Shown: positions 1-15,750 of the stretch, piece by piece
Position numbering within the stretch: the first letter of the stretch is position 1
How the letters are laid out: each line of letters starts with the position of its first letter
Assembly (NCBI GenBank): GCA_026129305.1
Contig: JAHCII010000006.1
Location: 1,056 to 65,055 of the forward strand
From: Anaerolineales bacterium
Lineage (GTDB): Bacteria; Chloroflexota; Anaerolineae; Anaerolineales; UBA11579
Direction of reading: 5' to 3'
Length of the DNA stretch: 64,000 bases
Notes under the pieces: generated by a model
What the model was told of the DNA's origin: nothing
The model's input: only the letters and a program-made list of their open reading frames with translations
Database searches by the model: none
Position numbers and translations under genes: made by a program

Positions 1-1255
1 CGAGTTGGTAGAGGGCTTTCTGGCCGCGGCGGCCGCCATCGGCACGGCGGACATGACCGCTGAGCACCAGTTGGTGCAAGACGTTGCGGACGGTGCCGGG
101 GGCGATGTCGGCCAGGCCGGCGGTGAGCTGGGGAAAGGTGAGCGGCGTGTCCGAAAGCAGCTGGATGAGATTTTGGGCGGTGGTGGATAAGGGCCGGGGG
201 GATTGAACGCCGGGTGGGGCCGGGGAGAGATGAAAGGTTGGCTGGTTATCTGGTGACTGGCCGAAGTTGGCTTTGGCGGTGAGGGATACAGGGGCAATGT
301 CGCGGGCTTTGAGGGTGGCAAGGCGAATGAGGTCTTCTTCCGGTTGCGACTCGACGAGGAGCATGTGGTCAACACCGGAAGCGATAAGGCTGGAGCCGCG
401 GAAGACGCCGCGCTTGTTGGTGTGATGGATGAGCAGCACGGCGGCATTGGTTTCGCGGGCGAGGCGGGAGAGATTGGCGATGACTGGCTGCATGGAGAGG
501 ACGTTGTTTTCGTCCACGCCGGGCATGACATTTGCGAGAGCGTCAATGATGATGAGGCCGACGTTCAGGGAGCGGGCGCGAGCAGAAATGGCGTCGACTT
601 CGGCGCGGTCTGCGAAGTTGTAGCCAGCAGGTGGAACAAAGAAGACAGACGTTTCCGACGCGGCTTGGTGGCCACGGAGAGTACGACCGAGGCGATCCCA
701 AGTGCGCTGGAGGCCGCCTTCCTGGTCGAGGATGAGCACCGGGGTTGGCGATTGTACGGGCGCACGGCCGTGCGCCCCAACAGCAGAGGAGGCAGTCGAA
801 TGCCCCAGCCAGTCTTGGCCGCAGGCGACGCTGACGGCGAGGTCGAGAGCCAGCCAAGTTTTCTTGGCGCCCGGCGCACCAACGAGCAGGTTGAGGCTGG
901 GACGGGTGAAGACATCCTGCACGCACCAATCCTGCGCTGGCAGCGGTTCGAGGGTTTCCCAAGCGGAGTAGATGCGCAGTTGATCTTCGGGCCGGGTCTC
1001 AATTTCGTCGAGGGCATCTTCGACTTCCATTTCCATATGGACGCGATCGGGGAGGCCGGCGATGGCTTCCTGGAAAGCTTGCTGGCGCTCGTAGAGGCCG
1101 CCGCCGGTTTGGGCACGGACGGCCTGGTAGCCAGCGGCCCAGGAAGCCGGCAGCGAATCCGGCGGCACGGTCGCGAGGCCGAAGTGGATGAGTTGGGCCA
1201 ACGCGGCCGCGGCGCGCTGGTTGAGCGCGTCTTCGTTGAGATTAATTGTGGACAT
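1..1255 (-). CDS. AAA_25/RepA-like RecA-fold ATPase with C-terminal winged-helix-like tail; the 3' end runs off the window
   Basis: My own minus-strand translation from the ATG at 1255 (GGGGGA RBS about 8 nt upstream) reads MSTINLNEDALNQRAAAALAQL... Motifs: Walker A LLVGAPGAKKTWLALDL, Walker B-like GLIIIDALANV, and AVLLIHHTNK. The C-terminus reads ...TVRNVLHQLVLSGHVRRADGGRRGQKALYQL. There is no stop before position 1, so it is absent from the ORF track. Confidence 0.75.
   Translation of the reverse strand, partial: MSTINLNEDALNQRAAAALAQLIHFGLATVPPDSLPASWAAGYQAVRAQTGGGLYERQQAFQEAIAGLPDRVHMEMEVEDALDEIETRPEDQLRIYSAWETLEPLPAQDWCVQDVFTRPSLNLLVGAPGAKKTWLALDLAVSVACGQDWLGHSTASSAVGAHGRAPVQSPTPVLILDQEGGLQRTWDRLGRTLRGHQAASETSVFFVPPAGYNFADRAEVDAISARARSLNVGLIIIDALANVMPGVDENNVLSMQPVIANLSRLARETNAAVLLIHHTNKRGVFRGSSLIASGVDHMLLVESQPEEDLIRLATLKARDIAPVSLTAKANFGQSPDNQPTFHLSPAPPGVQSPRPLSTTAQNLIQLLSDTPLTFPQLTAGLADIAPGTVRNVLHQLVLSGHVRRADGGRRGQKALYQL
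758..777. repeat. 20-bp perfect palindrome GGGCGCACGGCCGTGCGCCC (REP-like), copy 1, inside the AAA_25 CDS
   Basis: The sequence is self-complementary and its left flank is TGTAC. In the CDS frame it reads ...SSAVGAHGRAPVQSP... Confidence 0.9.
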
Positions 1256-1400
1256 GCGGGTCCCCCTGGTAAGCGATTAGCTGCCCTTATATAGGTTGAT
1301 TCTTGAGTGATAGCCAAGTTAGCATAAGTTGTTGAAATTGAGCGGAACATATGCCTGATGTTAAGGGAGCTAGCTAGAGAACGTTTGCTTTAGCAGGTTT

Positions 1401-3407
1401 CTATGCTTTGAAAAGAGTATTAATGCCTGTCAGGACCTTGTTGAAATTTCCCTCAGCTTGTATTGAATAAGATTTTGATTTTGTTCTTGATAGTTTTAAG
1501 TAAACCATTTGGGCAATACCAATCTTGTCTAATGTTATATCTTCAGGAGGATTTCCGATTTTTGGATTGACTGCCTGTAAGAGTGTCTGGATGTGTTTAG
1601 CTATACTTCCTTTGGCTTTTATTTTGTTTAACTCATTGTCGTCAGGTATCACTACATTGGGCCAAAATTGGCTATAGTATGACTTGAATTCGTTTATGTA
1701 TTCGTCTGCCTCGAAAAGATCCTCGATATCAAAATCTCCTGTGTCCCCCTGTTGAGATAGTTCTTTTACACTCTTAACCTTTTTAGACCAGGTGCTTAAG
1801 CCTGAGCCTGATAACTTCTTTTTCAGGTCACTATATTTTTGTCCAGAATCAACAATCGCTACCCAGTTCACTTGGTTCTTGGATTCTTTTCCTAGAAATA
1901 GCAAATATAGTGGCACTTTATCAATCCCCGCCACAGGAATAAAGCTCCGAGTTAGCTCCGAAAAATCCGTTGACCATTTTTTAGCAATTGAGTTGTTTTG
2001 AAAATACTTCAACCAAGCTTGCAGATAGAAATAATCAGAAACCCCCTCAACAACAACGTGCTCTTTTCCTGTAAGCAGTTCCTCCCCAACAAACAAGGCC
2101 AAAGCTTCTCGCAATGGAGAGGATAATTCTTCGTCTTTCCAAAATCTTTTATGGACTACTGTGCCGTTTTCTTTATTTGGGCCATCTTGCACATTTTCTA
2201 CAACATATATTCTTTCTAGCCTTTGCCAGGGCATCATCATTGGTTGATGTGTAGTGTAAATTATTTGTGAATCTCGAGAAATATCTTCAAAGAACGACTT
2301 TAAATCCATCTGCGATCTTGCATGTAAATCCCGTCCCGGTTCATCAAAAAGCCAGAGTACGTTTTGTTTGTTTTTGCCTGCAATGGCTAATCGGGTATAG
2401 AATCGCAAAAACCATTTTTCACCTTCGCTTAAGTCCTCAAGGCGGATTGCTCGCCCTTGAGGGTTTCTGACATTAAATGTTAATAAGTCTCCGCGATCGA
2501 TATAAACTATGAACTCCAGCCTATGTGTTTTCCACACATTCCCGATTTTTGTAGATAAAGTTTCACTCGCCGAATCCTGAACTGCAACTAGCCTTGTATG
2601 AGTCGCGGTTTCGAAGCTGTCGGCAGTCTGGCCTGATAGTTCTAACAGGTCATACAGAAATGGATGGCCTTCTCTCTCTTTAAGAGAGGCTACTGGCGCT
2701 TGACTTTCAATACCATAGTCCGCTATATCCAAAAGCTCAATGCTTAAATTATCGAATGCATTTCCAAGTATCTGCTCTGTGTTGATTTTTAATTTTTTCT
2801 CAACATTGCTAATTTGTTGTGGGAGTTCAGCAATGATTTCACTGAGTGAATCTCCAGGTCCCTTTAATTCTTCAATTAATTTCTCGATTTCTTGGAAATC
2901 CTTTTCATCGAGTTTGGCAACTAGCTGTAAGATCTTCTCCTTTTCTGGTCCCTTGTCAGGGAAAGAACCTAAGTCTGTCTTGTCAACTAAATTCCTTATT
3001 TCTGTTATTCGGCCGCGGATAAGTTCAAGGTCGACCGATGCGGGTTCACCAGATCCAATTGAGGAAATCTCGATTTTTGCTTTTTGTCCTCGAGCTTTTG
3101 AGCAAAACACCTCAAAGCCTTCAGTGGCATTGGGAACTAAACCGAGGTTTTCTAGTATAGGTGCGTCCGCCTCAGTGAACAAAAATCGAGCTTTGATTAC
3201 TAAGTCTTTATCTTGCAGAGGGTCTGCATAGAAATCATCGTCACTGATTGAGGCAGGCTTTTTCAAACTTGCAAGAGCGCGCAAGATGTTTGATTTTCCG
3301 GTGCCATTTCCACCGATAAAAGTGGTAATGTTTGTGTCAAAGGTTGTAAAACCTTCAAGTTCTTGGACCGATCGATAATTCTTTATTGTGAAGCTAACTA
3401 ATCTCAT
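1401..3407 (-). CDS. ABC/SMC-type ATPase fused to a TOPRIM-like nuclease domain (OLD-family / fused PARIS AriA-AriB-like); candidate defence protein
   Basis: 668-aa ORF with a GGGAGGA RBS. The N-terminus MRLVSFTIKNYRSV is typical of AAA_15/21 ATPases. Motifs: Walker A GGNGTGKSN, signature-like LSEGEKWF, Walker B LWLFDEPGRDLH, and H-loop TTHQP. The TOPRIM-like segment reads HVVVEGVSDYFYL ... VAIVDSG. The gene is strongly AT-rich compared with its neighbours. Confidence 0.8.
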   Translation of the reverse strand: MRLVSFTIKNYRSVQELEGFTTFDTNITTFIGGNGTGKSNILRALASLKKPASISDDDFYADPLQDKDLVIKARFLFTEADAPILENLGLVPNATEGFEVFCSKARGQKAKIEISSIGSGEPASVDLELIRGRITEIRNLVDKTDLGSFPDKGPEKEKILQLVAKLDEKDFQEIEKLIEELKGPGDSLSEIIAELPQQISNVEKKLKINTEQILGNAFDNLSIELLDIADYGIESQAPVASLKEREGHPFLYDLLELSGQTADSFETATHTRLVAVQDSASETLSTKIGNVWKTHRLEFIVYIDRGDLLTFNVRNPQGRAIRLEDLSEGEKWFLRFYTRLAIAGKNKQNVLWLFDEPGRDLHARSQMDLKSFFEDISRDSQIIYTTHQPMMMPWQRLERIYVVENVQDGPNKENGTVVHKRFWKDEELSSPLREALALFVGEELLTGKEHVVVEGVSDYFYLQAWLKYFQNNSIAKKWSTDFSELTRSFIPVAGIDKVPLYLLFLGKESKNQVNWVAIVDSGQKYSDLKKKLSGSGLSTWSKKVKSVKELSQQGDTGDFDIEDLFEADEYINEFKSYYSQFWPNVVIPDDNELNKIKAKGSIAKHIQTLLQAVNPKIGNPPEDITLDKIGIAQMVYLKLSRTKSKSYSIQAEGNFNKVLTGINTLFKA

Positions 3408-3556
3408 ATTCCTCCCGCAGGATTTTATTATACATAATCAATAATGCAAAGTTGGTTTTGTAATACAGTTCACATATCTGAGTCGCTAGCCCAAGTTTGC
3501 CGATTGAGCTGGGCTTGCCTGGGATGGGTAGCACAGCTTGACTAAGGAGGCGCGTG

Positions 3557-3964
3557 ATGACACTAAATAAGTACCGCCCCTGGTTCTACGCTGCGGCGTT
3601 GTACAACCTGCTCTGGGGCGCGCTGAATATCCTGTTCCCCGCGGCGCTGTTCGGTTGGATCGGCATGCCGCCGGCCGACACGGCGATCTGGCAGGTAGTC
3701 GGCATGTTCGTGCTGGTCTACACGCCGGCCTACTGGTGGGCGGCCCGCGACCCGGAGCGGCACCGCCATCTCATCGTCATAGGCCTGCTGGGCAAGCTGC
3801 TCGGCCCGCTGGGCTTCGCCTGGGCGCTGGCGGCCGGGCGGCTGCCGCTGGCCTTCAGCTGGGTGATCCTGTTCAACGACCTGATTTGGTGGCCGGCCTT
3901 CTTCGGCTTCCTGCGCGAGATGGCGCGAGGTCACGGCTGGAAGGCGCTGATCACAGGACAATAG
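3557..3964 (+). CDS. small integral membrane protein (4 predicted TM segments), function unknown
   Basis: AAGGAGG RBS at 3544-3550, 6 nt before the ATG at 3557. The sequence is hydrophobic, Trp-rich and helical. The antisense ORFs here look like GC shadows. Confidence 0.65.
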   Translation: MTLNKYRPWFYAAALYNLLWGALNILFPAALFGWIGMPPADTAIWQVVGMFVLVYTPAYWWAARDPERHRHLIVIGLLGKLLGPLGFAWALAAGRLPLAFSWVILFNDLIWWPAFFGFLREMARGHGWKALITGQ

Positions 3965-4034
3965 ACCCATCCCAGGCGGCGGCCGCCGCTCTACAATGAG
4001 GGCAATAAACGGCCTCTATTGATAAGGAACAGCC

Positions 4035-4838
4035 ATGAAAGTACAAGACAAAGTGATTGTGGTCACCGGCGCCGGCAGCGGTATCGGCCGGGCGCTGGTG
4101 CTGGCCTTGCTCGACCAAGGCGCCCGCGTGGCGGCGGTGGATGTGAGCCAGAGCGGCTTGCAGGAGACGCTGGCCCAGGCCGGCGCCGCCAAAGAGCGCG
4201 TCTCCACGCATGTGCTCGACCTGAGCGACAAGGCCAAGGTCGAAGCGCTGCCCGCCCAGGTCATCGCCGCCCACGGCGCTGCCGACGGCATCATCAACAA
4301 CGCCGGCATCATCCAACCCTTCGTGCCCTTCAATGACCTGGATTACAAAGACATCGAACGCGTGCTGCAGGTAAACCTCTACAGCCAGATCTATATGGTC
4401 AAAAGCTTCCTGCCGGAGCTGCTCAAGCGGCCCGAGGCGCACATCGTCAACGTCTCCAGCATGGGCGGCTTCTTCCCCTTCCCCGGGCAGACGCTATACG
4501 GCGCCACCAAGGCGGCGGTCAAGCTGCTCACCGAAGGACTGTACGCCGAATTGCTGGAGACCCAGGTGGGCGTGACGGTGATCTTCCCCGGCGCCATCGC
4601 CACCGACATCGCCAAGAACTCCGGCGTGCGCATGGCCGGGGCGGACAGCGCCGAATCCTCGGGCATGTCGATGACCAGCGCCGCTTCCGCCGCGCAGCAG
4701 ATCATCGCTGCCATGGAGAAGAACAAGTTCCAGGCCTTCGTGGGCAATGACTCGAAAATGATGAACCTGTTCTACCGGCTGAACCCCGGAGCCGCAACGC
4801 GCTTCATCCAGAAGCAAATGAAGAAGTTGCTGCAATAA
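4035..4838 (+). CDS. SDR-family short-chain dehydrogenase/reductase
   Basis: Cofactor motif TGAGSGIGRA, NNAG motif, and catalytic YGATKAA. Confidence 0.9.
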   Translation: MKVQDKVIVVTGAGSGIGRALVLALLDQGARVAAVDVSQSGLQETLAQAGAAKERVSTHVLDLSDKAKVEALPAQVIAAHGAADGIINNAGIIQPFVPFNDLDYKDIERVLQVNLYSQIYMVKSFLPELLKRPEAHIVNVSSMGGFFPFPGQTLYGATKAAVKLLTEGLYAELLETQVGVTVIFPGAIATDIAKNSGVRMAGADSAESSGMSMTSAASAAQQIIAAMEKNKFQAFVGNDSKMMNLFYRLNPGAATRFIQKQMKKLLQ

Positions 4839-4860
4839 GCGACCGGGCAGTCCGACATCC

Positions 4861-4890
4861 AGAGCGCAGGCGATTTGCCTGCGCTCTTTG
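4861..4890 (+). terminator. intrinsic terminator after the SDR gene
   Basis: 11-bp stem AGAGCGCAGGC/GCCTGCGCTCT with loop GATTT, followed by a T-rich tail. Confidence 0.6.
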
Positions 4891-4900
4891 ATATTTGCTA

Positions 4901-4937
4901 TTGACAACACTGTGTGTAATACAGTAATATTCACCAC
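4901..4937 (+). promoter_or_regulatory. promoter and candidate PadR operator; implies a leaderless padR mRNA
   Basis: TTGACA (4901-4906), 18 nt, TAATAT (4925-4930), then 7 nt to the ATG at 4938 with no Shine-Dalgarno sequence. The inverted repeat ACTGT-N7-ACAGT (4909-4925) lies in the spacer. Confidence 0.55.
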
Positions 4938-5294
4938 ATGGTAACACAAGAGGAGTACCCCGCTTTGCTGGAGAACCTCAGCCTGGAGCTGCGCCGCGGC
5001 GCGCTGGTGCTGGCCGTGCTCAGTCAATTGAGCGAAAAGCAATATGGCTATTCGCTCAAGCAGCAGCTGGCCAGCCAGGCTTTGGAGATCCCCGAGGGCA
5101 CCTTGTACCCGCTGCTGCGCCGCCTGGAGGCGCAGGGTCTGCTGGAAAGCGAGTGGGAGCTGGCCGACGAAGCCCGCCCGCGGCGCTACTACCGCATCAG
5201 TCCGCAAGGGCGTGAAGCGCTGGCAGACCTGACAAAAGAATGGGGGGCGCTCAGCCGTGCGCTGGGCGGGCTGTTGAAGGAAGAGAAGAAATGA
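4938..5294 (+). CDS. PadR-family transcriptional regulator
   Basis: YGYSLKQQL...EGTLYPLLRRLEAQGLLESEW...RRYYRISPQGREAL is the canonical PadR winged helix. Confidence 0.9.
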   Translation: MVTQEEYPALLENLSLELRRGALVLAVLSQLSEKQYGYSLKQQLASQALEIPEGTLYPLLRRLEAQGLLESEWELADEARPRRYYRISPQGREALADLTKEWGALSRALGGLLKEEKK

Positions 5295-6265
5295 ACGATC
5301 AGAATTTGCTTGAACGCTACATCCACGAAGTGGGCGCCCACCTGCCGCGCCGCAGCCGGCCGGATGTGCAGCTGGAGCTGCGCAGCTTGCTGCTGGACGA
5401 GCTGGCCGCCCGCGGCCTGGAGGCGGACAACCCGGCCGACGCCGCCGGCGTGGCCGAGCTGCTGAAGGAATACGGCCACCCCGAGGAACTGGCCGCCCGC
5501 TACCATACCGAGCAGTTCCTGATCAGCCCGCTGGCCTTCCCCGCCTTCCGGCTCAGTTACGGGATCGCGGCGGCGGTGGTGACTGTCGTCTTTCTGGTAG
5601 GGCTGGGCCTGCGCCTCAACCAGGGCGGCCTGGACCTCACCGAGCTGGCTGGGTTCCTTGGCTCCTATATCGAGACCATGCTGCTCAACTTCGGCGTGGT
5701 GGCTTTCGTGTTTTACCTGCTCGAGGGCCTGGGCTGGATCAAGCCGGCCAAAACCGGGGCCGGCTGGGACCCGCACAAGCTGCCGGCGGTGAAGGATCCC
5801 GACCGCATCAACCGCACGGAACTGCTGGTGGGCATCTTCTTCACCATCGCGGCGCTGCTGGTCTTCAACTTCGTGCCGCACTGGATCGGTATCGTCAGTT
5901 GGCACGATGACGGGATTGGTGTAGTGCCCATACTCAGCGACCAGTTCCTGACTTATGTGCCCTGGCTCAGCGCGCTGTGGGTAAGCGAAGTGGCGCTGAA
6001 GGCGCTGGTCTACCGGGCCGGGCGCTGGACGCGCCGCCTGCGCCTGGCCGAATTCGCACTTTCGCTGGCTTCCATCTATGTGCTCTACACCATCGTGCAG
6101 AATGCGGTCATCGCCAAGCTCGCCATCGTGGATGGCATTGCCAAATTCGCTTTGTGGATCCTATTGGGCATTGCTTTGTTGGAGTCAGGCTGGCAGCTCT
6201 ATCGCCTGTTGAGCGGCAAAGCCAATCATCCGCTCGGGGTTCCAAGTATTAGGGAGAACCAATGA
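5291..6265 (+). CDS. PadR-associated membrane protein (DUF1700/HAAS-like N-terminal domain plus polytopic membrane region), paralog 1
   Basis: ATGA overlap with the padR stop codon. The N-terminus reads LLERYIHEVGAHLPRRSRPDVQLELRSLLLDELAARG, followed by several TM helices. Confidence 0.75.
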   Translation: MNDQNLLERYIHEVGAHLPRRSRPDVQLELRSLLLDELAARGLEADNPADAAGVAELLKEYGHPEELAARYHTEQFLISPLAFPAFRLSYGIAAAVVTVVFLVGLGLRLNQGGLDLTELAGFLGSYIETMLLNFGVVAFVFYLLEGLGWIKPAKTGAGWDPHKLPAVKDPDRINRTELLVGIFFTIAALLVFNFVPHWIGIVSWHDDGIGVVPILSDQFLTYVPWLSALWVSEVALKALVYRAGRWTRRLRLAEFALSLASIYVLYTIVQNAVIAKLAIVDGIAKFALWILLGIALLESGWQLYRLLSGKANHPLGVPSIRENQ

Positions 6266-7248
6266 AACCATCCAAGTTGATCGACCGCTATTTAGCGGCG
6301 GTGGGGTTGCACCTGCCAAGCAAAACCCGCGCCGATGTGCAGCTGGAGCTGCGCAGCGCCATCCAGGACGCCCTGGAGGCGCGCGGGCTGGACGCGGACT
6401 GGAAAACAGACCAAGACGGCGTGGTCGAACTGCTGCGCGAGTTCGGCCGCCCGGAGGTGATCGCCCTGAGTTACGGCAGCCACAGCTATCTGATCGGCCC
6501 GCAAAGCATGCCCTACTACACCATGGTGCTGCGCGTCGCGGGCACGATCATCGCCGCCCTGCACCTGATCGGCCTGGCCGCGGCGCTGGTGACCAGCGGG
6601 CAAACGCCTTTCAGTGCGGGGAACGTGCTGAGCAATTTCTTCAGCACGCTCTTGACCGCCTTCGGCATCATCACCCTGATCTTTGCGCTGATCGAGCGGC
6701 GGGTGCTCAACATCAACCTGGCCGAAGACGACTGGGACCCGCAAAGCCTGCCGGAGGTGCAGCCAGACCCCCAGCGCGTCAATCTCTTCGAAAAAGGCTT
6801 CGAGCTGCTCTTCCTGGCCGGGCTTATCGCCGTGGTCAACTTCTTCCCGGATTGGTCGCCTGCTGCGCTGGACTTCGCCCAGGTGCCGGCGGACTTCGAC
6901 ATCATCCCGGCGATTGTGGGCCAGCTGGGCGCATACAAAGCCTGGTTCACCCTTGTGTGGTGCGGGGAACTGGTCGTGGGCCTGATCGCTTTGGTGCGCC
7001 GGCGCTGGAACAAGGCTTTGCGCAGCGCAGACGTGGTCTTTGCTTTCGGCTCTGTGGCGCTGGTGGGCCGCATCACGGCCAACCTTAGCGGCCGGGCCGG
7101 CGCGGGAGTGCTGGAGCAGACGGTGATGATCAGCTTCGTGATCACTTTCCTGATCCTGCTGGTGGATGCCTCGCTGCGGCTGTACAAACTGCTGCGAAGC
7201 GATCGGAGCCAGGAAGCTTTGGGCGCGGCAGACAGCCAAGCCAACTGA
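6262..7248 (+). CDS. PadR-associated membrane protein (DUF1700/HAAS-like), paralog 2
   Basis: ATGA overlap with the upstream gene. The N-terminus LIDRYLAAVGLHLPSKTRADVQLELRSAIQDALEARG is clearly paralogous to 5291..6265. Confidence 0.75.
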   Translation: MKPSKLIDRYLAAVGLHLPSKTRADVQLELRSAIQDALEARGLDADWKTDQDGVVELLREFGRPEVIALSYGSHSYLIGPQSMPYYTMVLRVAGTIIAALHLIGLAAALVTSGQTPFSAGNVLSNFFSTLLTAFGIITLIFALIERRVLNINLAEDDWDPQSLPEVQPDPQRVNLFEKGFELLFLAGLIAVVNFFPDWSPAALDFAQVPADFDIIPAIVGQLGAYKAWFTLVWCGELVVGLIALVRRRWNKALRSADVVFAFGSVALVGRITANLSGRAGAGVLEQTVMISFVITFLILLVDASLRLYKLLRSDRSQEALGAADSQAN

Positions 7249-7278
7249 TGACCGTTGCGGTCTAACAGCCGCCCAGCC

Positions 7279-7312
7279 AAGCGGCGTACCGATATTTGGT
7301 GCGCCGCTTTTT
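7279..7312 (+). terminator. intrinsic terminator of the padR operon
   Basis: Stem AAGCGGCGTACC / GGTGCGCCGCTT with loop GATATTT, followed by TTTTT. Confidence 0.65.
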
Positions 7313-7350
7313 CCGTCTTTGCGCGGGGTTTCAATCGCGGTATGCTTGGG

Positions 7351-7374
7351 TTGGGCGCACGGCCGTGCGCCCAA
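7351..7374. repeat. REP-like palindrome, copy 2 (TTGGGCGCACGGCCGTGCGCCCAA)
   Basis: The 20-bp core at 7353-7372 is identical to copy 1. The flanks extend self-complementarity to 24 bp. The site is intergenic. Confidence 0.9.
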
Positions 7375-7397
7375 CGACCCCAAAATGGAGAGTGTGA

Positions 7398-9083
7398 ATG
7401 GATATACGCGGAAAGAATGCCCTCGTACTGGGAGGTTTCGGCTTGGTTGGCAGGGCGGTGTGCCGGGAATTGCTGGCGCACGACCCGGCCCGCCTGCTGG
7501 TGACCTCACTGCGCAAGGAAGAAGCCGAGCAAGCCGTTGCAGAGCTGAAAGCTGAATTTCCCAATAGTCCGACCAAATTCTTTGCCGTATGGGGGGACAT
7601 TTTTGTCCGGGCCGAGTGGCTGACGGACAACCCCTCCCGGGCGGCGATCATGGCCGACCCGGCCAAACGCAAACAGCTGGTGGCGGATATCGTCGGCGAG
7701 CTGACCCCTGAAGTGCTCTCCGCCTCGCTGCTGTACCAGATCATTTTGGGCAAGACGCCCGGTCTGGATGGCGCCCCCAGCCAGATCATTGTGGACTGCA
7801 TCAACACCTCCACCGCGGTGGCCTACCAAAACATTTACGCCGCGGCGGGCAGGCTGAACAAATTGATCGCCGCGCAAGACGCGGCCACCAACTGGCCAGA
7901 CGAGGTGGAGCAGCTGCTCTCCGCTTTGTACATTCCGCAGCTGGTGCGCCATGTGCAGGTCCTGCACGACGCGATGCTGGAAGCCGGCACGCAGGCCTAC
8001 ATCAAAGTGGGCACCAGTGGCACCGGCGGCATGGGACTCAACATTCCCTACACGCACGGCGAGGAGAAACCCTCGCGGGTGCTGATGTCCAAAGCGGCCC
8101 TGGCCGGCGCGCAAACCCTGCTGACCTTCCTGATGGCGCGCACCCCCGGCGGCCCACAAGTGGTCAAAGAGGTCAAACCCTCGGCGCTGATCGCCTGGAA
8201 AGAGATCGGCTACGGCCCCATCCGCCGCGGCGGGCAGGATGTGCTGCTGTATGACTGCCCGCCCGAGCAGGCGGTGAGCCTGGACGACCCGGCCAACCTG
8301 GCTCCCCAGGGCCAGTTTGGCACCCAGACCGGCGGCGTGCTGGAAGAGGTCTACATCAACACCGGCGAGAACGGCCTGTTTGCCGCCGGCGACTTCGCCG
8401 CCATCACCGCCTTTGGCCAGATGGAATTCGTCACGCCGGAAGAGATTGCCCACAATGTGGTGCGTGAGGTCCTGGGCGGCAACACCGGCAAGGACATCGT
8501 CGGCGCGCTGGACAGCGCCGTGATGGGCCCGACCTTCCGGGCGGGCACGCTGCGCGAAGCGGCGCTGGAGCGTTTGCGCCAGCTGAGCGCCGAGCACGGC
8601 GAGTCGGTGGCCTTTGAGATCCTTGGCCCGCCGCGCATGTCCAAGCTGCTCTACGAAGCTTTCCTGCTCAAGCAGGTTTACGGCAGCTTCGGGCCTGCCC
8701 TGGCCGACACGCCGCAGGCGATGGCGGCCAAGCTGGAGACCCTGATCCACCAGGATGCGGCCCTGCGCCAGAAGATCATTTCCATCGGGCTGCCGATCGT
8801 GCTGCCGGACGGCAAACGCATGCTGCGCGGGCCGGTGGTCAAGTCCGAGACCGCTGAGCAGGGCTGGGTGGACCTGACCCCGGCCAATATGGGCCGCTGG
8901 CATACGCGCCTGGAAGGCATCCGCGCCATGGTGCAGGAAGGGCTGGCTGGCGAGAGTTCCTCGCGCTCGGACCGCGGCTATCCGGACCTGCGCCGTTGGC
9001 AGGCCAGCGAAGCCTTTGAGATCGGCGAGATCGTGGCCTGGGTCTCAATATACGAAGATGAGGGCCGCCGCGGCAAGCACTAA
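7398..9083 (+). CDS. 561-aa protein with an N-terminal NAD(P)-binding Rossmann fold; family not recognised
   Basis: The N-terminus is KNALVLGGFGLVGRAVCREL (GxGxxG). The ORF is long with coding-like composition. I could not place the remainder in a known family. Confidence 0.7.
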   Translation: MDIRGKNALVLGGFGLVGRAVCRELLAHDPARLLVTSLRKEEAEQAVAELKAEFPNSPTKFFAVWGDIFVRAEWLTDNPSRAAIMADPAKRKQLVADIVGELTPEVLSASLLYQIILGKTPGLDGAPSQIIVDCINTSTAVAYQNIYAAAGRLNKLIAAQDAATNWPDEVEQLLSALYIPQLVRHVQVLHDAMLEAGTQAYIKVGTSGTGGMGLNIPYTHGEEKPSRVLMSKAALAGAQTLLTFLMARTPGGPQVVKEVKPSALIAWKEIGYGPIRRGGQDVLLYDCPPEQAVSLDDPANLAPQGQFGTQTGGVLEEVYINTGENGLFAAGDFAAITAFGQMEFVTPEEIAHNVVREVLGGNTGKDIVGALDSAVMGPTFRAGTLREAALERLRQLSAEHGESVAFEILGPPRMSKLLYEAFLLKQVYGSFGPALADTPQAMAAKLETLIHQDAALRQKIISIGLPIVLPDGKRMLRGPVVKSETAEQGWVDLTPANMGRWHTRLEGIRAMVQEGLAGESSSRSDRGYPDLRRWQASEAFEIGEIVAWVSIYEDEGRRGKH

Positions 9084-9145
9084 TAACGCCGGTTGGATCT
9101 ACGGCGTTAGCTTAAGTGACCCAACCCAGAGAAGGAGGGCTGACG

Positions 9146-9619
9146 ATGTACAAACGAATTTTGGTGCCCCTGGACGGTTCGAAGCGCGCTGAGCGCATTC
9201 TGCCGCACGTAGAGGACCTGGCTGCGAAAGAAGCTGCCACGGTGATCCTGTTGTATGTAGTGGACCCCGGCCTGGTGCCCTTCACCCCGGGCATGAGTAT
9301 GGGCATGGCTCCCGCGCCGCAGGAATTGGAGCTGTACTGGCAGAGCCTGCAGGAGGCCGAGCAGGATGCAGACAAGTACCTGCAGACCCAGGCGGCCCGC
9401 CTGGCCAAGCACAAGATCAAGACGGAGAATCTGGTGCGCCGCGGCGACCCGGTCAATGCCATTGTTTCGGCTTCCGAAGAAGAGAACGTGGATCTGATCG
9501 CGATGAGCAGCCACGGCCGTACTGGCCTGGAACGCGTCTTTTATGGCTCTGTGACCAGTGGCGTGCTACACAAAGTGGACCGCCCGCTGCTGCTGATCCG
9601 GGCGCAGAAAGAGGAATAG
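9146..9619 (+). CDS. universal stress protein (UspA family)
   Basis: GAAGGAGGG RBS at 9131-9139. The sequence reads MYKRILVPLDGS...DLIAMSSHGRTGLERVFYGSVTSGVLHKVDRPLLLIR. Confidence 0.9.
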   Translation: MYKRILVPLDGSKRAERILPHVEDLAAKEAATVILLYVVDPGLVPFTPGMSMGMAPAPQELELYWQSLQEAEQDADKYLQTQAARLAKHKIKTENLVRRGDPVNAIVSASEEENVDLIAMSSHGRTGLERVFYGSVTSGVLHKVDRPLLLIRAQKEE

Positions 9620-9645
9620 CTTTTTCTTTTTGCTTCGGCAACTGC

Positions 9646-11337
9646 TCAGCGTCCGTAAAGTTTGCGGAAGCGTTTTTCAGCCTCGGGCGAACCTATCAGC
9701 ACCAAATGGTCGTTGTCTTGCAGTGGGCGGAAAGGGTCTGGTGTTGTGTGCAGTCGACCATCCTGTTGCAGGCCGACCACGGTACAACCGGTCTTGCGGC
9801 GAATATCTGTCTCTGCCAAGGTTTTGCCGACCAGTGAATCAGGTGTATCTACTTCAAAGATATCCAGACCCTCCGCGACCATCAAAATATTTTCGCGGCT
9901 GATCAAGTTAATCATCGTGTTGGCGCCTGTGGAAGCATAGGAGAGGACGAAATCGGCGCCCGCGCGGTGTAATGTGGCGTCGTTGCGTTCCAGATTGGCG
10001 CGGGAGACAATTTGAACATCCGGGCGCAACCGGCGGCAATAGATTGTCAAGTAAATGTTCATGTCGTCATCGTGGGTGGTGATGATCACCGCGGGGGTTT
10101 GATGAATGCCAGCTTCGACCAGCAATTCGATTTCAGCCGCGTCTCCTAAAATGTACTTCTGCGAGTTGCGAATACGCGCCGGATCCTTCTCAATGATACG
10201 GTAATCCATGTTGCGGGCGGCCAGCGCCTGGGCAGCTGCACGGCCAACCCGGCCGCCGCCAATAATCACGACAGGGCCATCCAGCGGGTTGGTAGTCTGG
10301 AAGAACACCCGGTTGTACTGAGCGATCTGATCCTCAGAGCCCGCGATGACCAGGACGGTATCCTCGGCGATGGCTGTCTCGGGCTGGGTGGGCTGAAAGA
10401 CACCATCCTGCCAGATGCCAAGGACATTGATTCCGGCCAGCTCGCGCAGGCGGCTTTCTTTGAGGGTTTGGCCGACGAGCGAGGTATTGCGCACCATGGC
10501 CTCAGCAATGATTAGCTCGCCAAATTGACCGATTGGGTGGGTGAGGCGCTCGTTGTCGAGCACGCGCCGGGCCAAGGCCTGCCCCATCATTTCGCCCAAC
10601 TCCAAGACATGCGTACTGCCGGCCAACTCCAAAATATCGACTGAGGCGTGGAAGTTGGCCGTTGAAATAACGGGAACGGTCTCTGAGACCTCGCGTACCG
10701 TGGAGACAATGTTTGCATTAACCTGATCGCTGGCTGTGGCCACAACCAGGCGAGCCTGATGAGCTTGCGCAAAATCGTAGGTCTTGGGATTGTCCAGATA
10801 TCCCCTCATAATCTTATACCCTTGGTTATGCAGATCCAGCGCCTCCTGGAGGCTGGCGACCAGCAAGACATAGGGGAAGCCATATTGCTCCAACCTGCGG
10901 ATGAACGACTTGGTCACAGGGTCGAAGTGGGTGAGGATAATATGTCCGGAAGTTTTGGCTGGCAGGCTAGTAGGAGCACGGGCGGCCTGCTGAGCGCGCA
11001 TCCAGGGCTCGTAGAAGAGCTCAATGAACGTGAAAGGCAACAAAATTAGCAGGAAGACGATCCCACTCAGCAGAACAACGACAGAAAAGATCTTGCCCAA
11101 ATCAGATTGGAAAATGATGTCGCCAAAACCGAGAGTGGACATCACCGTCAGTGTCCAATAAAAGCCGGTCACCCAGGTCTGCGACCTGCCTTCATATTCC
11201 ATGATGAAATGGAAGATGACGCTGTAGGCGGTGATCATGATCACCAACACAAGAAAAAATCGCAGCAAGCCCACTGCATTCACACGGTTTGACCTTTCAG
11301 TCAGCAGGTGCGGAATTTGGGCAAAAAGGAATTTCAT
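9646..11337 (-). CDS. potassium channel with two RCK/TrkA domains
   Basis: Selectivity filter TLGFGD after two TM helices. Rossmann GGGRVGRA and two TrkA-N/TrkA-C-like repeats follow. Confidence 0.9.
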   Translation of the reverse strand: MKFLFAQIPHLLTERSNRVNAVGLLRFFLVLVIMITAYSVIFHFIMEYEGRSQTWVTGFYWTLTVMSTLGFGDIIFQSDLGKIFSVVVLLSGIVFLLILLPFTFIELFYEPWMRAQQAARAPTSLPAKTSGHIILTHFDPVTKSFIRRLEQYGFPYVLLVASLQEALDLHNQGYKIMRGYLDNPKTYDFAQAHQARLVVATASDQVNANIVSTVREVSETVPVISTANFHASVDILELAGSTHVLELGEMMGQALARRVLDNERLTHPIGQFGELIIAEAMVRNTSLVGQTLKESRLRELAGINVLGIWQDGVFQPTQPETAIAEDTVLVIAGSEDQIAQYNRVFFQTTNPLDGPVVIIGGGRVGRAAAQALAARNMDYRIIEKDPARIRNSQKYILGDAAEIELLVEAGIHQTPAVIITTHDDDMNIYLTIYCRRLRPDVQIVSRANLERNDATLHRAGADFVLSYASTGANTMINLISRENILMVAEGLDIFEVDTPDSLVGKTLAETDIRRKTGCTVVGLQQDGRLHTTPDPFRPLQDNDHLVLIGSPEAEKRFRKLYGR

Positions 11338-11405
11338 GACGATGGATGGCGGAGGCTATGCTTACGTGGGCTTCTCTTCCATTTGGGCCGCCGTAGACGC
11401 CTTAA

Positions 11406-13319
11406 CTATAGCGGCGCTTCAGCGTGATAGGGCACATCGATTATAACGATATCCCTTTGAGCCACTAATCGGGCTTTTAAGCGATCCGCTGTTCCACTGT
11501 GAAGGAAACGCACCAACCAGTTCTCAGTTACGAATTCTGGGATCACTACTGTTGTAAGCTTCTCGGGAAATTCTTCATTATTGACCTTGGTTATGTATTT
11601 TTCCAATGGTTCAAAGATGTCACGGTAATCATAGTTGATTAAAACTAATTCGACATCTTTGGTGATTGCGGAAAAGCGCTTCCATCGCTCTCTAATATGC
11701 TCTTCGACCTGCGAATTGGTGATTATGGAAACAACGCGGACATCGCGAGAAAGGCGCTTTGCATACTGTATCGCCAACAAGCTACCGTGGTGGATATCTG
11801 CCACGGGCACGATAACCACGTTAGCCACTTTGGGAAGTTGCCGTATAGAAAGACCTTGAGTGCTTAGGTGTTGGGCGAGATGCTTGTAGTGTCTGTCTAC
11901 CAAATAGAACAAGAGCATAATGAGTGGAATCATTAGCATCACGATCCACGCGCCTTCTACGAACTTTGTTGCCACCAGAATCAGAAACACAACAAACGTG
12001 ACAACGGCCCCAAAGGCGTTTAACGCTTGTTTCCAGGTGGCGTTGGCTTCATAGTGGATCTCTGTGACTAAAGTTTGTAGCTTTTGCCCCGGTTTCAAAT
12101 GGCGAATACGCCCCATTAGCCGAAACATGCCTATTTGCGAGACACTAAAGCTAAACATTACGCCCAGCGCGTAGAGGGGCAGCATCGCGATCTCATCTGC
12201 CTGAAAGGCAATAACAATTATTGATGAAAAAATAGCAAGGACATAAATACCAGAGTTAAACACCAAGCGATCCCCGCGGTTTTGTAGCCAGCGGGGCAAG
12301 AAGCCGTCACGAGCCAAGAAGGAACCAAGCCGAGGAAAGTCCTGATATCCAGTATTGGCAGCTAAAAGCAAAATAAGCGCGGTGAAGGCTTGCACCCAGT
12401 AATAAAGAATGCCATTGCCTGTGACTTGGCGAGTCAACTGCGAGAGAATACTTTCCCCTTCGTGGGGAACTAACTCAAGATGTGTGGCAAGAAAAGTAAT
12501 TCCCAAGAAGAGCGACATCGCCATAATACCCATAGCTACCATGGTTAGCGCCGCATTTTTTGATTCCGGCGATTTAAAAGCCTGCACACCATTACTAATC
12601 GCCTCAATTCCGGTCAAGGCTGTACACCCACCGGCAAAGGCGCGCAAAATGAGCCAAATATAAGCAAACCCTTCTACGGAAGCGGTGGCTGCAACCTGCT
12701 CATGGAATGGGGAGATGGGCGCTGCCCCAAACAGGCCAAGATAGCGCACCAACCCAATAGCAATAACCACCCAAACTCCACCCACAAACGCATACGTAGG
12801 CACAGCAAAAACGGTCCCGCTTTCACGCACTCCTCGCAGATTTATCCAAGTAATAAACAGGATTGCCCCAATAGCAAACAAGACCCGGTATTCAAACAAC
12901 TCTGGAAAAGCAGAGGTAACCGCTCGAACTCCCGCAGAAACGGACACAGAAACCGTGAGAATGTAGTCCGTAAGCAGAGCGGCGCCAGCCGCTAAAGAAG
13001 GATACTTTCCCAGATTATCTTTCGCAACTGTGTAAGCTCCACCCCCATCAGGGTAGTGCAAAATGGTTTGTATGTAGCTGAAAATGACAAGTAAAACCAG
13101 CCCGGCAACACTTATCCCTATGGGTAGGGTCATATGCAGAGCGCCACTTCCTAGGACAATTAATACGCTCATGATTGCCTCAGTCGCGTAAGCATTGGAG
13201 CTAATAGGGTCAGAAGCGAATACGGCTAAACCTCTAACCTTGTCTAAACGCTCATGTGCTTCTCGGCTATTCGGAAATGGCTTGCCGAAGAAGATGCGCT
13301 TCAATCCTTGGATATTCAT
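11406..13319 (-). CDS. APC-superfamily amino acid/polyamine permease with a C-terminal soluble domain
   Basis: The N-terminus MNIQGLKRIFFGKPF...LAVFASDPISSNAYATE is followed by about 12 TM helices. The ORF track start at 13343 is an alternative. Confidence 0.8.
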   Translation of the reverse strand: MNIQGLKRIFFGKPFPNSREAHERLDKVRGLAVFASDPISSNAYATEAIMSVLIVLGSGALHMTLPIGISVAGLVLLVIFSYIQTILHYPDGGGAYTVAKDNLGKYPSLAAGAALLTDYILTVSVSVSAGVRAVTSAFPELFEYRVLFAIGAILFITWINLRGVRESGTVFAVPTYAFVGGVWVVIAIGLVRYLGLFGAAPISPFHEQVAATASVEGFAYIWLILRAFAGGCTALTGIEAISNGVQAFKSPESKNAALTMVAMGIMAMSLFLGITFLATHLELVPHEGESILSQLTRQVTGNGILYYWVQAFTALILLLAANTGYQDFPRLGSFLARDGFLPRWLQNRGDRLVFNSGIYVLAIFSSIIVIAFQADEIAMLPLYALGVMFSFSVSQIGMFRLMGRIRHLKPGQKLQTLVTEIHYEANATWKQALNAFGAVVTFVVFLILVATKFVEGAWIVMLMIPLIMLLFYLVDRHYKHLAQHLSTQGLSIRQLPKVANVVIVPVADIHHGSLLAIQYAKRLSRDVRVVSIITNSQVEEHIRERWKRFSAITKDVELVLINYDYRDIFEPLEKYITKVNNEEFPEKLTTVVIPEFVTENWLVRFLHSGTADRLKARLVAQRDIVIIDVPYHAEAPL

Positions 13320-13424
13320 GCAATTCGATCTGCTTTCCGGCAAGCATATGCCTGCACAAGCCGGATATTATATAATACCGAAGGACAATTTTCACCCCTT
13401 TTACGGAAAATTGGCGAGCAAGTC

Positions 13425-14279
13425 ATGATCATAGTAGATTCGCTTACGTACAGCTACAAGACTGTCAAGGCTCCAGCCATCCAAGGCTTATCTTTCGAGG
13501 TGAGACCTGGAGAGGTGTTTGGCTTCCTTGGCCCCAGCGGCGCTGGAAAATCGACAACCCAAAAGGTTCTCACGGGCCTGTTACGTGATTTTTCTGGCCA
13601 TGTATCCGTTTTCGGACGCGATCTGACCACATGGGGGTCCGATATGTATGAACGCATTGGCGTGTCATTTGAGATCCCCAACCTTTATTTAAAACTTAGC
13701 GGGCATGAAAACTTACGCTACTTTGGCGCGCTCTATGAGGGCAAGAAGCTTGATCCACAGGAACTGCTCTCTCTGGTAAATCTGAACGACGACGGCAAGA
13801 TGCTGGTTTCGCAATACTCCAAGGGCATGCGCCATCGACTTAATGTTGCGCGTGCGCTTATTCACAATCCCGAATTGCTTTTTATGGATGAACCCACTGC
13901 CGGTCTGGACCCGGTAAATGCCCGCCGAATAAAGGAAATTGTGATGGCGCAGCGTGATGCCGGCAAGACGGTGTTCCTCACAACACACGATATGAGCGTG
14001 GCAGATGAACTCTGCGACCGCGTGGCGTTTATTGTTGATGGCCGAATTGCGCTCATCGATTCGCCGCGGGCACTTAAGCTCAAATACGGCACAGCCAATG
14101 TACGCGTTGAGTATGAGGAGAATGGAGCCCTTGCAAGTAAAGAATTCAGCATGAGCGACCTGGGGACCAATCAGCAATTCTTGGATGTGCTGCGCAACCA
14201 CAGCGTGCAAACCATGCACTCCACCGAAGCCACCCTGGAAAGTATCTTCATCGAAGTAACCGGCAGAGATCTGTCGTGA
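13425..14279 (+). CDS. ABC transporter ATP-binding protein (ABC-2 exporter type)
   Basis: Walker A GPSGAGKST, signature YSKGMRHRL, and Walker B LLFMDEPTAGLD. I prefer the start at MIIVDSLTYSY over the track start at 13254. Confidence 0.9.
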   Translation: MIIVDSLTYSYKTVKAPAIQGLSFEVRPGEVFGFLGPSGAGKSTTQKVLTGLLRDFSGHVSVFGRDLTTWGSDMYERIGVSFEIPNLYLKLSGHENLRYFGALYEGKKLDPQELLSLVNLNDDGKMLVSQYSKGMRHRLNVARALIHNPELLFMDEPTAGLDPVNARRIKEIVMAQRDAGKTVFLTTHDMSVADELCDRVAFIVDGRIALIDSPRALKLKYGTANVRVEYEENGALASKEFSMSDLGTNQQFLDVLRNHSVQTMHSTEATLESIFIEVTGRDLS

Positions 14280-14980
14280 ACCGCTTGTTTGCCACAATGC
14301 AGACGGATCTACATCTGCAGATCCGCAATGGCTTTTATTATGCGGTGGTCTTTGTTGCCGTTGTGCTTGTGGTTGCGCTTACACGCCTCAGCATCCCGGA
14401 CTACCGGCATGTATGGCCGATCCTGATCATTGGGAACCTGCTGATCACCACTTTCTATTTCATGGCTGGACTTGTCCTTCTTGAAAAGGCAGAGGGCACG
14501 ATGGAAGCGCAAATCATCACCCCGCTGCACCCTGCGGAGTACCTGATTTCAAAAGTACTCACGCTCGGGCTCCTCTCGCTATTGGAAACCGCTATCATCG
14601 TGGTACTGCTCTCGGGTTTGGCGTTTAACTGGCTGCTGTTTGTTCTGGGTGTGCTGATAACGGCCGCAATCTACAGCTTGTCTGGTTTCATTGCTGTAGC
14701 CGCCTATGACTCACTGAATGAATTTATCTTTCCTTCAGTGCTCTGGGTGCTGGCCTCTTTGCCCCCAATTCTCTATGCTGCCGGAGTCTCTGACCATTGG
14801 TTGTTCTGGCTGCACCCGTTACAAGCTCCACTTATTGTTTTGCGCGGCGCGTTCAGTGAGATTCCGGCATGGCAGTTGATCTTTGGTATTGGATATGGCG
14901 CGGCCTGGTCGGCTTTATTGCTCTATGCCGCGTTGCGTGTTTTTAGGCGCTTTGTCATCCGCCGGGAAGGAGTGAAGTAA
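14276..14980 (+). CDS. ABC-2 type exporter permease
   Basis: GTGA overlap with the ATPase stop codon. Six hydrophobic helices. Confidence 0.75.
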   Translation: MNRLFATMQTDLHLQIRNGFYYAVVFVAVVLVVALTRLSIPDYRHVWPILIIGNLLITTFYFMAGLVLLEKAEGTMEAQIITPLHPAEYLISKVLTLGLLSLLETAIIVVLLSGLAFNWLLFVLGVLITAAIYSLSGFIAVAAYDSLNEFIFPSVLWVLASLPPILYAAGVSDHWLFWLHPLQAPLIVLRGAFSEIPAWQLIFGIGYGAAWSALLLYAALRVFRRFVIRREGVK

Positions 14981-15017
14981 AACGAACGCCTTCAAAGCCC
15001 TCCGCTCTCTCGGACCT

Positions 15018-15728
15018 GTGGACTTACGCGGGATTCGTCGTGACAGCATGCTGTCATACATTGCTGTCATGCCCGTGGTTTTTGCCTTGCTTTTCCGCTT
15101 TGTAATACCGTGGATTCGTGCACAATTTTTAGAAAGAGCAGGATTCGACATCGAGCCTTTTTACTTCTTGGCGATGAGCTACTTTTTCGTGATGCTCTCC
15201 AGTGCCTTTGTTGGCCTGGCGCTTGGATTTTTGGTGCTGGATGAGCGCGACAGCCAAACTCTGCAGGCACTTTTGGTTTCGCCGCTCTCGATCAGCAGCT
15301 ATATCGCCTACCGCATCAGCTTACCGGTGGTTCTCTCGATGTTGGTTACTCTGATTGCCTTTCCCATTGCCGGTCTTGGTAATTTAAGCATAGCGCAGCA
15401 GCTGGTTGTAGCACTCGCTGCTGCGCTGCTCGCCCCGCTTTGGATGTTGTTCCTGGGTGGCTTTGCCGCCAACAAAGTTCAGGGTTTTGCCCTGGTCAAG
15501 GCTGCCGGCTTTATCATGCTTATGCTGCCCATGTTCAGTTACTTTGTTAGTTCTAACTGGCACTGGGCTTTCGGAGTGCTGCCTCCATTTTGGCCACTCA
15601 AGATTTACTGGTTACTCGAATCGGGTGAAGCGAATGTCTGGGCATATCTTGCGATAGCACTAGCCTATCAGGCATTGCTACTCTGGCTTCTTCTTCGTCG
15701 ATTCCTGAAAGTAGTCTATTCTCAATAG
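15018..15728 (+). CDS. ABC-2 type exporter permease (second subunit)
   Basis: Polytopic hydrophobic ORF immediately downstream in the same operon. Confidence 0.75.
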   Translation: MDLRGIRRDSMLSYIAVMPVVFALLFRFVIPWIRAQFLERAGFDIEPFYFLAMSYFFVMLSSAFVGLALGFLVLDERDSQTLQALLVSPLSISSYIAYRISLPVVLSMLVTLIAFPIAGLGNLSIAQQLVVALAAALLAPLWMLFLGGFAANKVQGFALVKAAGFIMLMLPMFSYFVSSNWHWAFGVLPPFWPLKIYWLLESGEANVWAYLAIALAYQALLLWLLLRRFLKVVYSQ

Positions 15729-15750
15729 CTACTACACTGCACAAGCGCTT

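Follow-up and report, generated by a model that had tools for sequence, protein, structure and literature searches.

The window analysed here, a 64-kb stretch of contig JAHCII010000006.1 from an Anaerolineales bacterium, contains near its left end an AT-rich cassette with a single gene, which is predicted to encode a protein of the OLD family with an N-terminal ABC-type ATPase and a putative C-terminal TOPRIM nuclease domain. The gene is situated between one coding for a protein with AAA_25 and winged-helix domains and another for a small predicted membrane protein (Table 1). The segment from 1290 to 3540 contains ca. 40 % GC, compared with 61–64 % for the genome. In a profile of 300-nt windows, the GC content falls from 0.61–0.66 to 0.36–0.45 between ca. 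1200 and 3600 and then returns to 0.60–0.69, and the 2250-nt window starting at 1251, with a GC content of 0.401, is the minimum of the whole window, lying 4.1 standard deviations below the mean (0.606 ± 0.050). The OLD-like gene itself has a GC content of 0.399 and a GC content at third codon positions (GC3) of 0.366, vs. 0.73–0.89 for eight neighbouring genes. The GC profile and the codon statistics thus confirm an original prediction, made from the letters of this DNA alone, which had pointed out an AT-rich stretch of about 40 % GC occupied by just one gene.

The remaining open reading frames (ORFs) of the AT-rich stretch are nested in the OLD-like gene, in other frames or on the opposite strand, and were treated as by-products. 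The start codon is supported by the coinciding N-termini of all homologues and by the sequence GGGAGG, which precedes the ATG by 3 nt. The pair TTTGCA-17-TAAAAT (3450→3422), promoter-like in sequence, is a candidate only, its match being no commoner than in shuffled sequence; promoter and terminator scans also returned sites no more numerous than in shuffled sequence, and the cassette region had no match in Rfam.

Table 1. Features of the AT-rich cassette, of the protein it encodes and of its flanks (positions in the window).
Feature	Position	Strand	Remarks
Gene for AAA_25 and winged-helix protein (left flank)	2..1255	-	truncated at the end of the window, with 418 of 432 aa present; Pfam AAA_25, E = 8e-31
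Segment differing from the related contig L094	1367..3648		exchangeable cassette together with the initial ~31 codons of the membrane-protein gene
OLD-family ATPase-TOPRIM gene (predicted)	1401..3407	-	668 aa plus stop codon; sole gene of the AT-rich cassette
C-terminal helical bundle (predicted)	1404..1712	-	residues 566–668; invariant D627-K628-x-G630 (nt 1518–1529)
TOPRIM core (predicted)	1713..2075	-	residues 445–565; H450, E454-G-V-S-D458, D520-S-G, D560-I-E562-D
ATPase C-lobe	2148..2531	-	residues 293–420; signature-like motif, Walker B, D-loop region, H-loop; Pfam AAA_21, SMC_N
Helical insert in ATPase (predicted)	2532..3035	-	residues ~125–292; helices in the AlphaFold2 model
ATPase N-lobe	3036..3407	-	residues 1–124; Walker A GGNGTGKSN at 32–40; K38 at nt 3294–3296
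Upstream non-coding region of the cassette	3408..3553	-	GGGAGG 3 nt before the ATG; promoter-like pair
Gene for 136-aa predicted membrane protein (right flank)	3554..3964	+	host-like composition, GC3 0.89

Modules of the OLD-like protein

Residues 1–391 match the Pfam family AAA_15 (E = 8.9e-21), with further matches to AAA_21 and SMC_N, and all of the motifs quoted in the original prediction are present in the translation: GGNGTGKSN (residues 32–40), LSEGEKWF (326–333), LWLFDEPGRDLH (351–362) and TTHQP (385–389) in the ATPase, and VVVEGVSDYFYL (451–462) and AIVDSG (517–522) in the C-terminal region. In an alignment of 28 homologues, the invariant residues of the ATPase are G32, N34, G35, G37, K38, S39 and N40 in the Walker A motif, S327 and G329 in LSEGE, D355 and E356 in the Walker B motif LWLFDE, H362 in the D-loop region (LH) and H387 in the H-loop. 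The AlphaFold2 model obtained from this alignment has a mean predicted local distance difference test score (pLDDT) of 83.6 and shows an N-lobe built of strands and helices; the insert consists of helices at residues 127–142, 150–166, 171–187, 195–206, 210–220 and 270–291. The dimerisation domain of Thermus scotoductus (Ts) OLD is likewise inserted within the ATPase (PMC7049728), and the predicted helical insert occupies the corresponding position; by analogy, it probably mediates dimerisation.

The ATPase domain also scores high against the SMC3 and Rad50 heads, both by sequence and by fold, as it would if the gene coded for a housekeeping DNA-repair ATPase of the host, similar to SMC, RecF or Rad50. 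This similarity, however, is confined to the ABC head; there are no coiled-coil arms and no Mre11- or kleisin-type partners, and the C-terminal region is predicted to be a TOPRIM of the OLD type. Together with the foreign composition of the gene and its absence from the syntenic site of the closest relatives (see below), this makes a housekeeping role extremely improbable.

Profile comparisons and models place in the C-terminal region a TOPRIM core of a divergent OLD type and, after it, a helical bundle. The assignment is based on profile-profile links to relatives that pass the cut-off of the Pfam family PF20469 (OLD-like_TOPRIM), complemented by a link to Ts OLD at the sequence level and by matches in fold both to this enzyme and to the C-terminal region of Burkholderia pseudomallei (Bp) OLD. 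PF20469 was matched by 14 of 21 C-termini of the family (best E = 8e-5) and, above its cut-off, by the nearest outgroup proteins (635–690 aa), which hhalign aligns with the family from end to end (634 columns, probability 100 %, E = 1e-63). A search with the C-terminal profile among 1.84 billion representative proteins recovered 664 relatives, including 143 at E ≤ 1e-10 and 21 clusters at E ≤ 1e-30; all ten of the relatives scanned with Pfam matched PF20469, eight of them above the cut-off, and in most of the ten the domain is fused to AAA_15. The profile of the family C-termini (A2) and that of the wider clade (A4) align with E = 2e-40 (hhalign), and A4 in turn matches Ts OLD (6p74, E = 6e-4) and the C-terminal region of the Class 2 OLD from Xanthomonas campestris (Xcc OLD, 6njv, E = 0.003), and the alignments bring the catalytic motifs into register. 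The link to Ts and Xcc OLD emerged only with the widened profile.

Fold comparisons gave a similar picture. In a Foldseek search with the full-length model, the top PDB match was Ts OLD (6p74, E = 4e-14, 13 % identity in the fold alignment), with GajA ranking 2–4, while a model of residues 396–668 only (pLDDT 82) had a single confident match, to the C-terminal region of Bp OLD (6nk8_B, probability 1.0, template-modelling score 0.52). The TOPRIM model comprises four parallel strands (449–453, 487–491, 514–519 and 544–546) alternating with helices, and the bundle then extends to residue 668 through helices 567–581, 602–613, 628–641 and 649–667. The AAA_15 match, PF20469 at profile level and these fold matches bear out the original prediction of an ABC-ATPase/TOPRIM fusion, for which an OLD-like nature had been one of two options. 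The C-terminal model had no significant match among the viral structures of BFVD, and PADLOC searches with the C-termini alone produced marginal matches only (RT-Toprim_I-C at 0.0026, and GajA for one member).

Residue equivalences were obtained by chaining two alignments, that of A4 with 6p74, which pairs VEG..D with E377/D381 and LLDnD with D431/D433, and that of A2 with A4. Residue E454 corresponds to Ts E377 (metal A), D458 to Ts D381 (metal B), and D520 to Ts D431 (metal A); these three residues and E562 are invariant in the family, in register with Ts E377, D381, D431 and E480 (E454-G-V-S-D458 is encoded by nt 2034–2048, D520-S-G by 1842–1850 and D560-I-E562-D by 1719–1730). By its position, the motif D560-I-E562 would fit Ts S478-x-E480 (metal B). 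The sequence D627-K628-x-G630, also invariant, begins a helix of the C-terminal bundle, and K628 may play the role of Bp K562 and Ts R487 (PMC7049728). The original prediction had seen an oddity in the use of Asp rather than the usual second Glu, but the same E-x3-D arrangement is present in Ts OLD (E377/D381; PMC7049728) and is normal for Class 1. Judging from the alignments, the true departure from the canonical TOPRIM is instead the loss of the second Asp of DxD (D520-S-G); in the family this site reads D-[S/T]-x, and only a few members have a third-position Asp.

The best PADLOC matches of the protein are to PARIS components, AriA (E = 4e-23) and AriAB (E = 6e-17, residues 308–464). PARIS systems, also called Class 4 OLD, consist of AriA plus AriB or of a fused AriAB, and share with the protein an ABC ATPase of the AAA_15 type and a TOPRIM. 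Since fused AriAB proteins exist (PMC10568477; PMC12409363), the gene could code for AriA and AriB in one chain, in which the sensing of a phage anti-restriction protein by the ATPase would release or activate a TOPRIM RNase directed against host tRNA; TOPRIM nucleases may act as RNases, and an effect of P2 Old on tRNA was suggested in an old report (PMC12409363). Nevertheless, the AriA and AriAB matches are restricted to the generic ABC ATPase and reach no further than the first TOPRIM strand, and the TOPRIM of PARIS is of the DUF4435/AriB type, unlike the OLD-like one (PF20469) predicted here. No match to DUF4435 or AriB was found in the protein and 21 family C-termini (Pfam E ≤ 1, PADLOC E ≤ 0.1) or in ten relatives (Pfam E ≤ 0.01). 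Likewise, the C-terminal profiles detected no AriB chain in the PDB at E ≤ 10, although they found Ts OLD and Xcc OLD, and the C-terminal fold search returned the Bp OLD region, not AriB. On these profiles and models, PARIS membership appears largely refuted and is, in our opinion, improbable. Of the two options in the original prediction, Class 1 OLD or fused PARIS, the first stands by gene context, and the second lacks a DUF4435/AriB signal.

Cassette replacement between close relatives

Judging from its flanking genes, the window belongs to Anaerolineales (Chloroflexota). Its nearest relative is represented by a contig from Logan SRR30854923 (L094), which was detected by way of the AAA_25 protein and agrees with the window in gene order and orientation; the flanks are 90–96 % identical in nucleotide sequence. 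In a blastn comparison of both sequences, window positions 7204–3650 aligned at 90.4 % and 1282–1 at 85.2 %. Amino acid identity is 97.8 % for a short-chain dehydrogenase/reductase, 98.9 % for the 561-aa protein of ORF 7398–9083, 88.6 % for the membrane protein (residues 24–136), and 86 % for AAA_25. The slot between the AAA_25 start and the membrane-protein gene (6154–7861 in L094) is occupied by different genes, coding for a Peptidase_M78 (398 aa) and a DUF4411 protein (166 aa), with a GC content of 0.43–0.45. The former is ImmA/IrrE-like and the latter PIN-like, and this pair is predicted to be a module of the toxin-antitoxin type (PMC5499597).

The left breakpoint lies at ~1367–1400, and the ca. 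110 nt upstream of AAA_25 are semi-conserved with L094 and probably carry the promoter of this gene. The right breakpoint, at ~3648, is within the first ~31 codons of the membrane-protein gene, and for this reason its N-termini differ; the products are 136 aa long in the window and 115 aa in L094, with homology from residue 24 on. The membrane protein had no match in Pfam or PADLOC. The full-length AAA_25 protein has 432 aa (P0232), and the slot is on the 5′ side of its gene.

The closest species-level representative (L005) is collinear with window positions 4007–16421 (83–92 % nucleotide identity) and lacks both the OLD-like gene and the gene for the 136-aa membrane protein, while its AAA_25 homologue is in the opposite orientation. 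In L005, the AT-rich patch by the AAA_25 homologue (6434–8242) codes for a 272-aa protein without Pfam or PADLOC match and contains a 113-aa ORF with a weak PIN-domain match. PADLOC identified nothing among the slot genes of L005, nor in AAA_25 or the 136-aa membrane protein. Each of the five related loci has an AT-rich stretch (0.41–0.48, vs. 0.59–0.64) with a different filling on the 5′ side of AAA_25, and three more distant relatives hold other AT-rich content in the slot. In comparison with L005, L095 and L096, the window and L094 have the unit formed by slot and AAA_25 in inverted orientation, with no recombinase visible. Neither an integrase nor a target-site duplication nor notable terminal inverted repeats are visible at the ends of the cassette. 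Among metagenome contigs, the exact DNA pattern from the AAA_25 start had no match, and a scan with the AAA_25 protein gave one uninformative 1.1-kb match.

Because L094 and the more distant relatives carry other content in the slot, these comparisons indicate that the OLD-like gene is swappable horizontal cargo and not a core gene, and that the AT-rich island is one allele of a recurrent cassette slot, whose contents may be exchanged by recombination in the conserved flanks. The foreign GC and GC3 and the different cassette at the syntenic position in L094 bear out the horizontal acquisition of the original prediction, which had reasoned that a core gene would be found in syntenic positions in all relatives; its picture of an island has to be modified, in that the gene is foreign but not a lone insertion. 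The swap between near-identical Anaerolineales backgrounds constitutes a clean and datable case of defence-gene turnover, albeit one of an expected type.

The start of AAA_25 (1255) is 145 nt past the stop of the OLD-like gene (1401), on the same strand, and its product has a RecA-type ATPase fold, as do some replicative helicases. The OLD-like gene could then be the first of a Gabija-like pair, with the RecA/RepA-helicase-like AAA_25 as its partner, a possibility absent from the original prediction. However, AAA_25 is host-like in composition (GC3 0.73, vs. 0.37 for the OLD-like gene), occurs without any OLD gene in four relatives (L005, L094, L095 and L096), and the semi-conserved sequence on its 5′ side probably provides it with a promoter of its own. 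Neither AAA_25 nor a UvrD-type gene was found beside the OLD-like gene in any of nine family and outgroup loci. AAA_25 was consequently rejected as a helicase-like partner, and a Gabija-like pair is highly improbable; the single gene in the cassette and the lack of a helicase partner in the nine loci agree with the stand-alone, non-Gabija gene originally proposed.

Approximately 58 full-length homologues share 33–52 % identity with the protein and are mostly annotated as ‘AAA family ATPase’. A source is named for only a few, which come from Patescibacteria, Saccharibacteria and a Hodarchaeota archaeon, the clade being found mainly in Patescibacteria, some archaea and AT-rich islets of high-GC bacteria. 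The donor appears to be unsampled, since identity to the best homologue does not exceed 52 %. A single-gene context recurs in seven distinct loci of the family and two of the outgroup, with unrelated and differing neighbours and no non-coding flank common to them. One of these homologues (P0034, L093 1–14112) occurs amid SIR2_2, HEPN_AbiU2, a tyrosine integrase, an HTH protein and Fic, a neighbourhood resembling, by its gene content, a defence island on an integrated element, and another is flanked by two serine recombinases. Elsewhere, homologues form AT-rich islets in high-GC flanks (0.47 vs. 0.63, 0.42 vs. 0.62, and 0.48 vs. 0.69 for an outgroup protein), whereas in low-GC contigs their GC content is closer to that of the flanks; this pattern would fit repeated transfer from low-GC donors.

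Two relatives recovered with the C-terminal profile, P0115 (844 aa) and P0163 (938 aa), contain within the ABC ATPase a PF00432 domain (E = 1e-41 and 2e-32, respectively), an alpha-alpha toroid like those of prenyltransferases and squalene cyclases. The insertion point is the usual site of the helical dimerisation insert, and both proteins retain a C-terminal OLD-like TOPRIM. We know of no published description of this architecture.

Class assignment and proposed function

Four OLD classes are defined by gene context, and Class 1 OLDs are single genes; two of them, P2 Old and Vibrio cholerae (Vc) OLD, confer defence through abortive infection (PMC10568477; PMC12392090). From its sequence, the protein is an OLD-family ATPase-nuclease and, by gene context, a Class 1 OLD, because the one-gene cassette contains no helicase, reverse transcriptase, non-coding RNA or separate AriB. 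It shares with the members of this class (P2 Old, Ts OLD, Vc OLD and Escherichia coli YbjD) a single gene without dedicated partner, an N-terminal ABC ATPase with a helical insert, a C-terminal TOPRIM and the E-x3-D first acidic motif. Unlike them, it is longer, has a helical bundle of ~100 residues and its Pfam TOPRIM score is below the cut-off. Its 668 aa (649–731 aa in the family) exceed the length window of 500–600 aa that delimits Class 1 in a published survey (PMC12392090), and its bundle is predicted at residues 566–668, whereas a helical C-terminal domain is described for Class 2 and reported absent in Ts OLD (PMC7049728). It also differs from Ts OLD in the candidate catalytic base, Lys K628 of the bundle here vs. 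the loop Arg R487 in Ts, and in the lack of conservation in the family of the D433 counterpart.

The succession of TOPRIM and helical domain is shared with Class 2 OLDs (Bacillus cereus GajA and the C-terminal regions of Bp and Xcc OLD), and several PADLOC profiles for GajA align across residues 345–578. In contrast to Class 2 and Gabija, no UvrD/PcrA/Rep-like gajB adjoins the gene here or in the nine related loci; in addition, the first acidic motif is E-x3-D, vs. E-x3-E in the Xcc alignment (VEGDAE), and DxD is degenerate. Class 3 OLDs (of the retron Eco8 type), Septu PtuA, AbiL and MADS mad3 possess a homologous ABC ATPase module, but the cassette is without reverse transcriptase, non-coding RNA, HNH protein (PtuB) or other partner gene, there being no reverse transcriptase ORF in the cassette and no Rfam match in the region; moreover, the chains of PtuA, AbiLi and mad3 carry no TOPRIM.

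Although divergent, the protein is in essence an ordinary representative of a defence family already known, in a subfamily that is itself uncharacterised; its architecture would not surprise specialists and overturns no current ideas. Clades of such length fall outside the survey window of 500–600 aa and are therefore skipped by published surveys of Class 1, and automated annotation gives only ‘AAA family ATPase’ because the TOPRIM score of the protein is under the Pfam cut-off. Recognition of this longer clade, with its helical tail and half-lost DxD, widens the OLD repertoire and supplies a naturally occurring variant in which the requirement for individual TOPRIM ligands could be examined. 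No branch of this widespread defence family is less well understood than the single-gene OLD nucleases; to our knowledge, phenotypes among them are limited to P2 Old, V. cholerae OLD and YbjD, and there is almost no experimental work on phage biology in the phylum Chloroflexota. One could go further and propose, jointly, that the ~58 proteins, within a wider clade of ~660, constitute a distinct and undescribed class of single-gene OLDs, with a Class-1-like first acidic motif, a Class-2-like helical tail supplying the catalytic Lys and a lost metal-A ligand, and that the 5′ side of the AAA_25 and winged-helix gene is a dedicated hotspot for cassette exchange in Anaerolineales, operating without visible recombinase. 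We consider this joint proposal speculative and unlikely; if the class were indeed distinct, a different metal stoichiometry or another substrate (RNA or tRNA, or nicking only) could follow.

We favour the interpretation of the protein as a stand-alone OLD enzyme, horizontally acquired and acting alone as an anti-phage effector, with a probability of roughly 0.7. Horizontal transfer would have brought the gene into the slot 5′ of AAA_25 in this high-GC chromosome. By analogy with studied OLD enzymes, from which we infer dimerisation, nuclease chemistry, substrate, trigger and defence phenotype, its product would probably be a homodimer held by the helical insert, with an ATPase module that senses or gates. 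Upon infection, nucleic acid would be nicked or degraded at the metal-dependent TOPRIM site, which would comprise E454, D458, D520 and E562 as well as K628, contributed by the bundle, and the outcome would probably be abortive infection, following the model of P2 Old, V. cholerae OLD and E. coli YbjD. YbjD is reported to confer anti-phage phenotypes (PMC13261556). The toxin-antitoxin-type replacement in a close relative and the defence-island neighbours of one homologue are indirect hints of a defence role.

Several observations weigh against this interpretation. The score of the protein alone for PF20469 (residues 450–520) is 16.6–18.3 bits, vs. a Pfam cut-off of 23.2, so that the TOPRIM match is significant only at the profile and structure level. 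No PADLOC model spans the whole protein, and the only match of the family C-terminal profile (A2) among PDB sequences was a chance one, to a prephenate dehydratase. The position of the metal-A ligand Ts D433 is G522 here and variable in the family, leaving DxD half present; because its second Asp is not conserved, the nuclease could be altered or weakened. In YbjD, the TOPRIM domain is reported to be dispensable (PMC13261556), and the nuclease need not be the effector. The target could also be RNA (PMC12409363). Phage records contain no close relative, plasmid records contain only ‘AAA family ATPase’ genes with <30 % identity, and IMG/VR viral contigs only weak P-loop matches. The anti-phage role of the protein and of its ~58-member subfamily is argued by analogy, and expression in a host of 62 % GC is uncertain, the codon composition being far from that of the host.

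The gene might instead be inert or selfish cargo, silent or kept through toxicity or addiction, that gives the host no protection from phages. The extreme codon mismatch with the host (GC3 0.37 vs. about 0.85), the turnover of the slot between close relatives and the sparse, patchy distribution of the family, with the 21 clusters cited above among all representatives, are in line with such cargo. The ORF, however, is intact and of full length, with all family-invariant catalytic residues kept and a strong Shine-Dalgarno sequence, and conservation in the family is typical of purifying selection across very distant hosts, which makes useless cargo distinctly unlikely.

Other features of the window

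A block at ~10300–15750, with a GC content of 0.47–0.55, codes for an ABC exporter and a channel of the TrkA type. We suspected rRNA because the block is nearly identical to L005 in every frame, a reading which was rejected upon a negative Rfam search and the finding that it encodes transporters. L005 lacks a 1.7-kb segment (11811–13534) of this block, which is otherwise 87–92 % identical in nucleotide sequence; the segment contains most of an amino-acid permease ORF (11406–13343, minus strand). A tRNA-Val(GAC) at 49102–49178 (minus strand), in a stretch of mildly lower GC content (0.53–0.55), is the sole tRNA and the sole Rfam match of the window. Positions 4938–7248 contain a gene for a PadR regulator followed by two tandem genes for paralogous membrane proteins with N-terminal HAAS domains, the first of which overlaps padR at its end; in L094 there are three paralogues of this kind.

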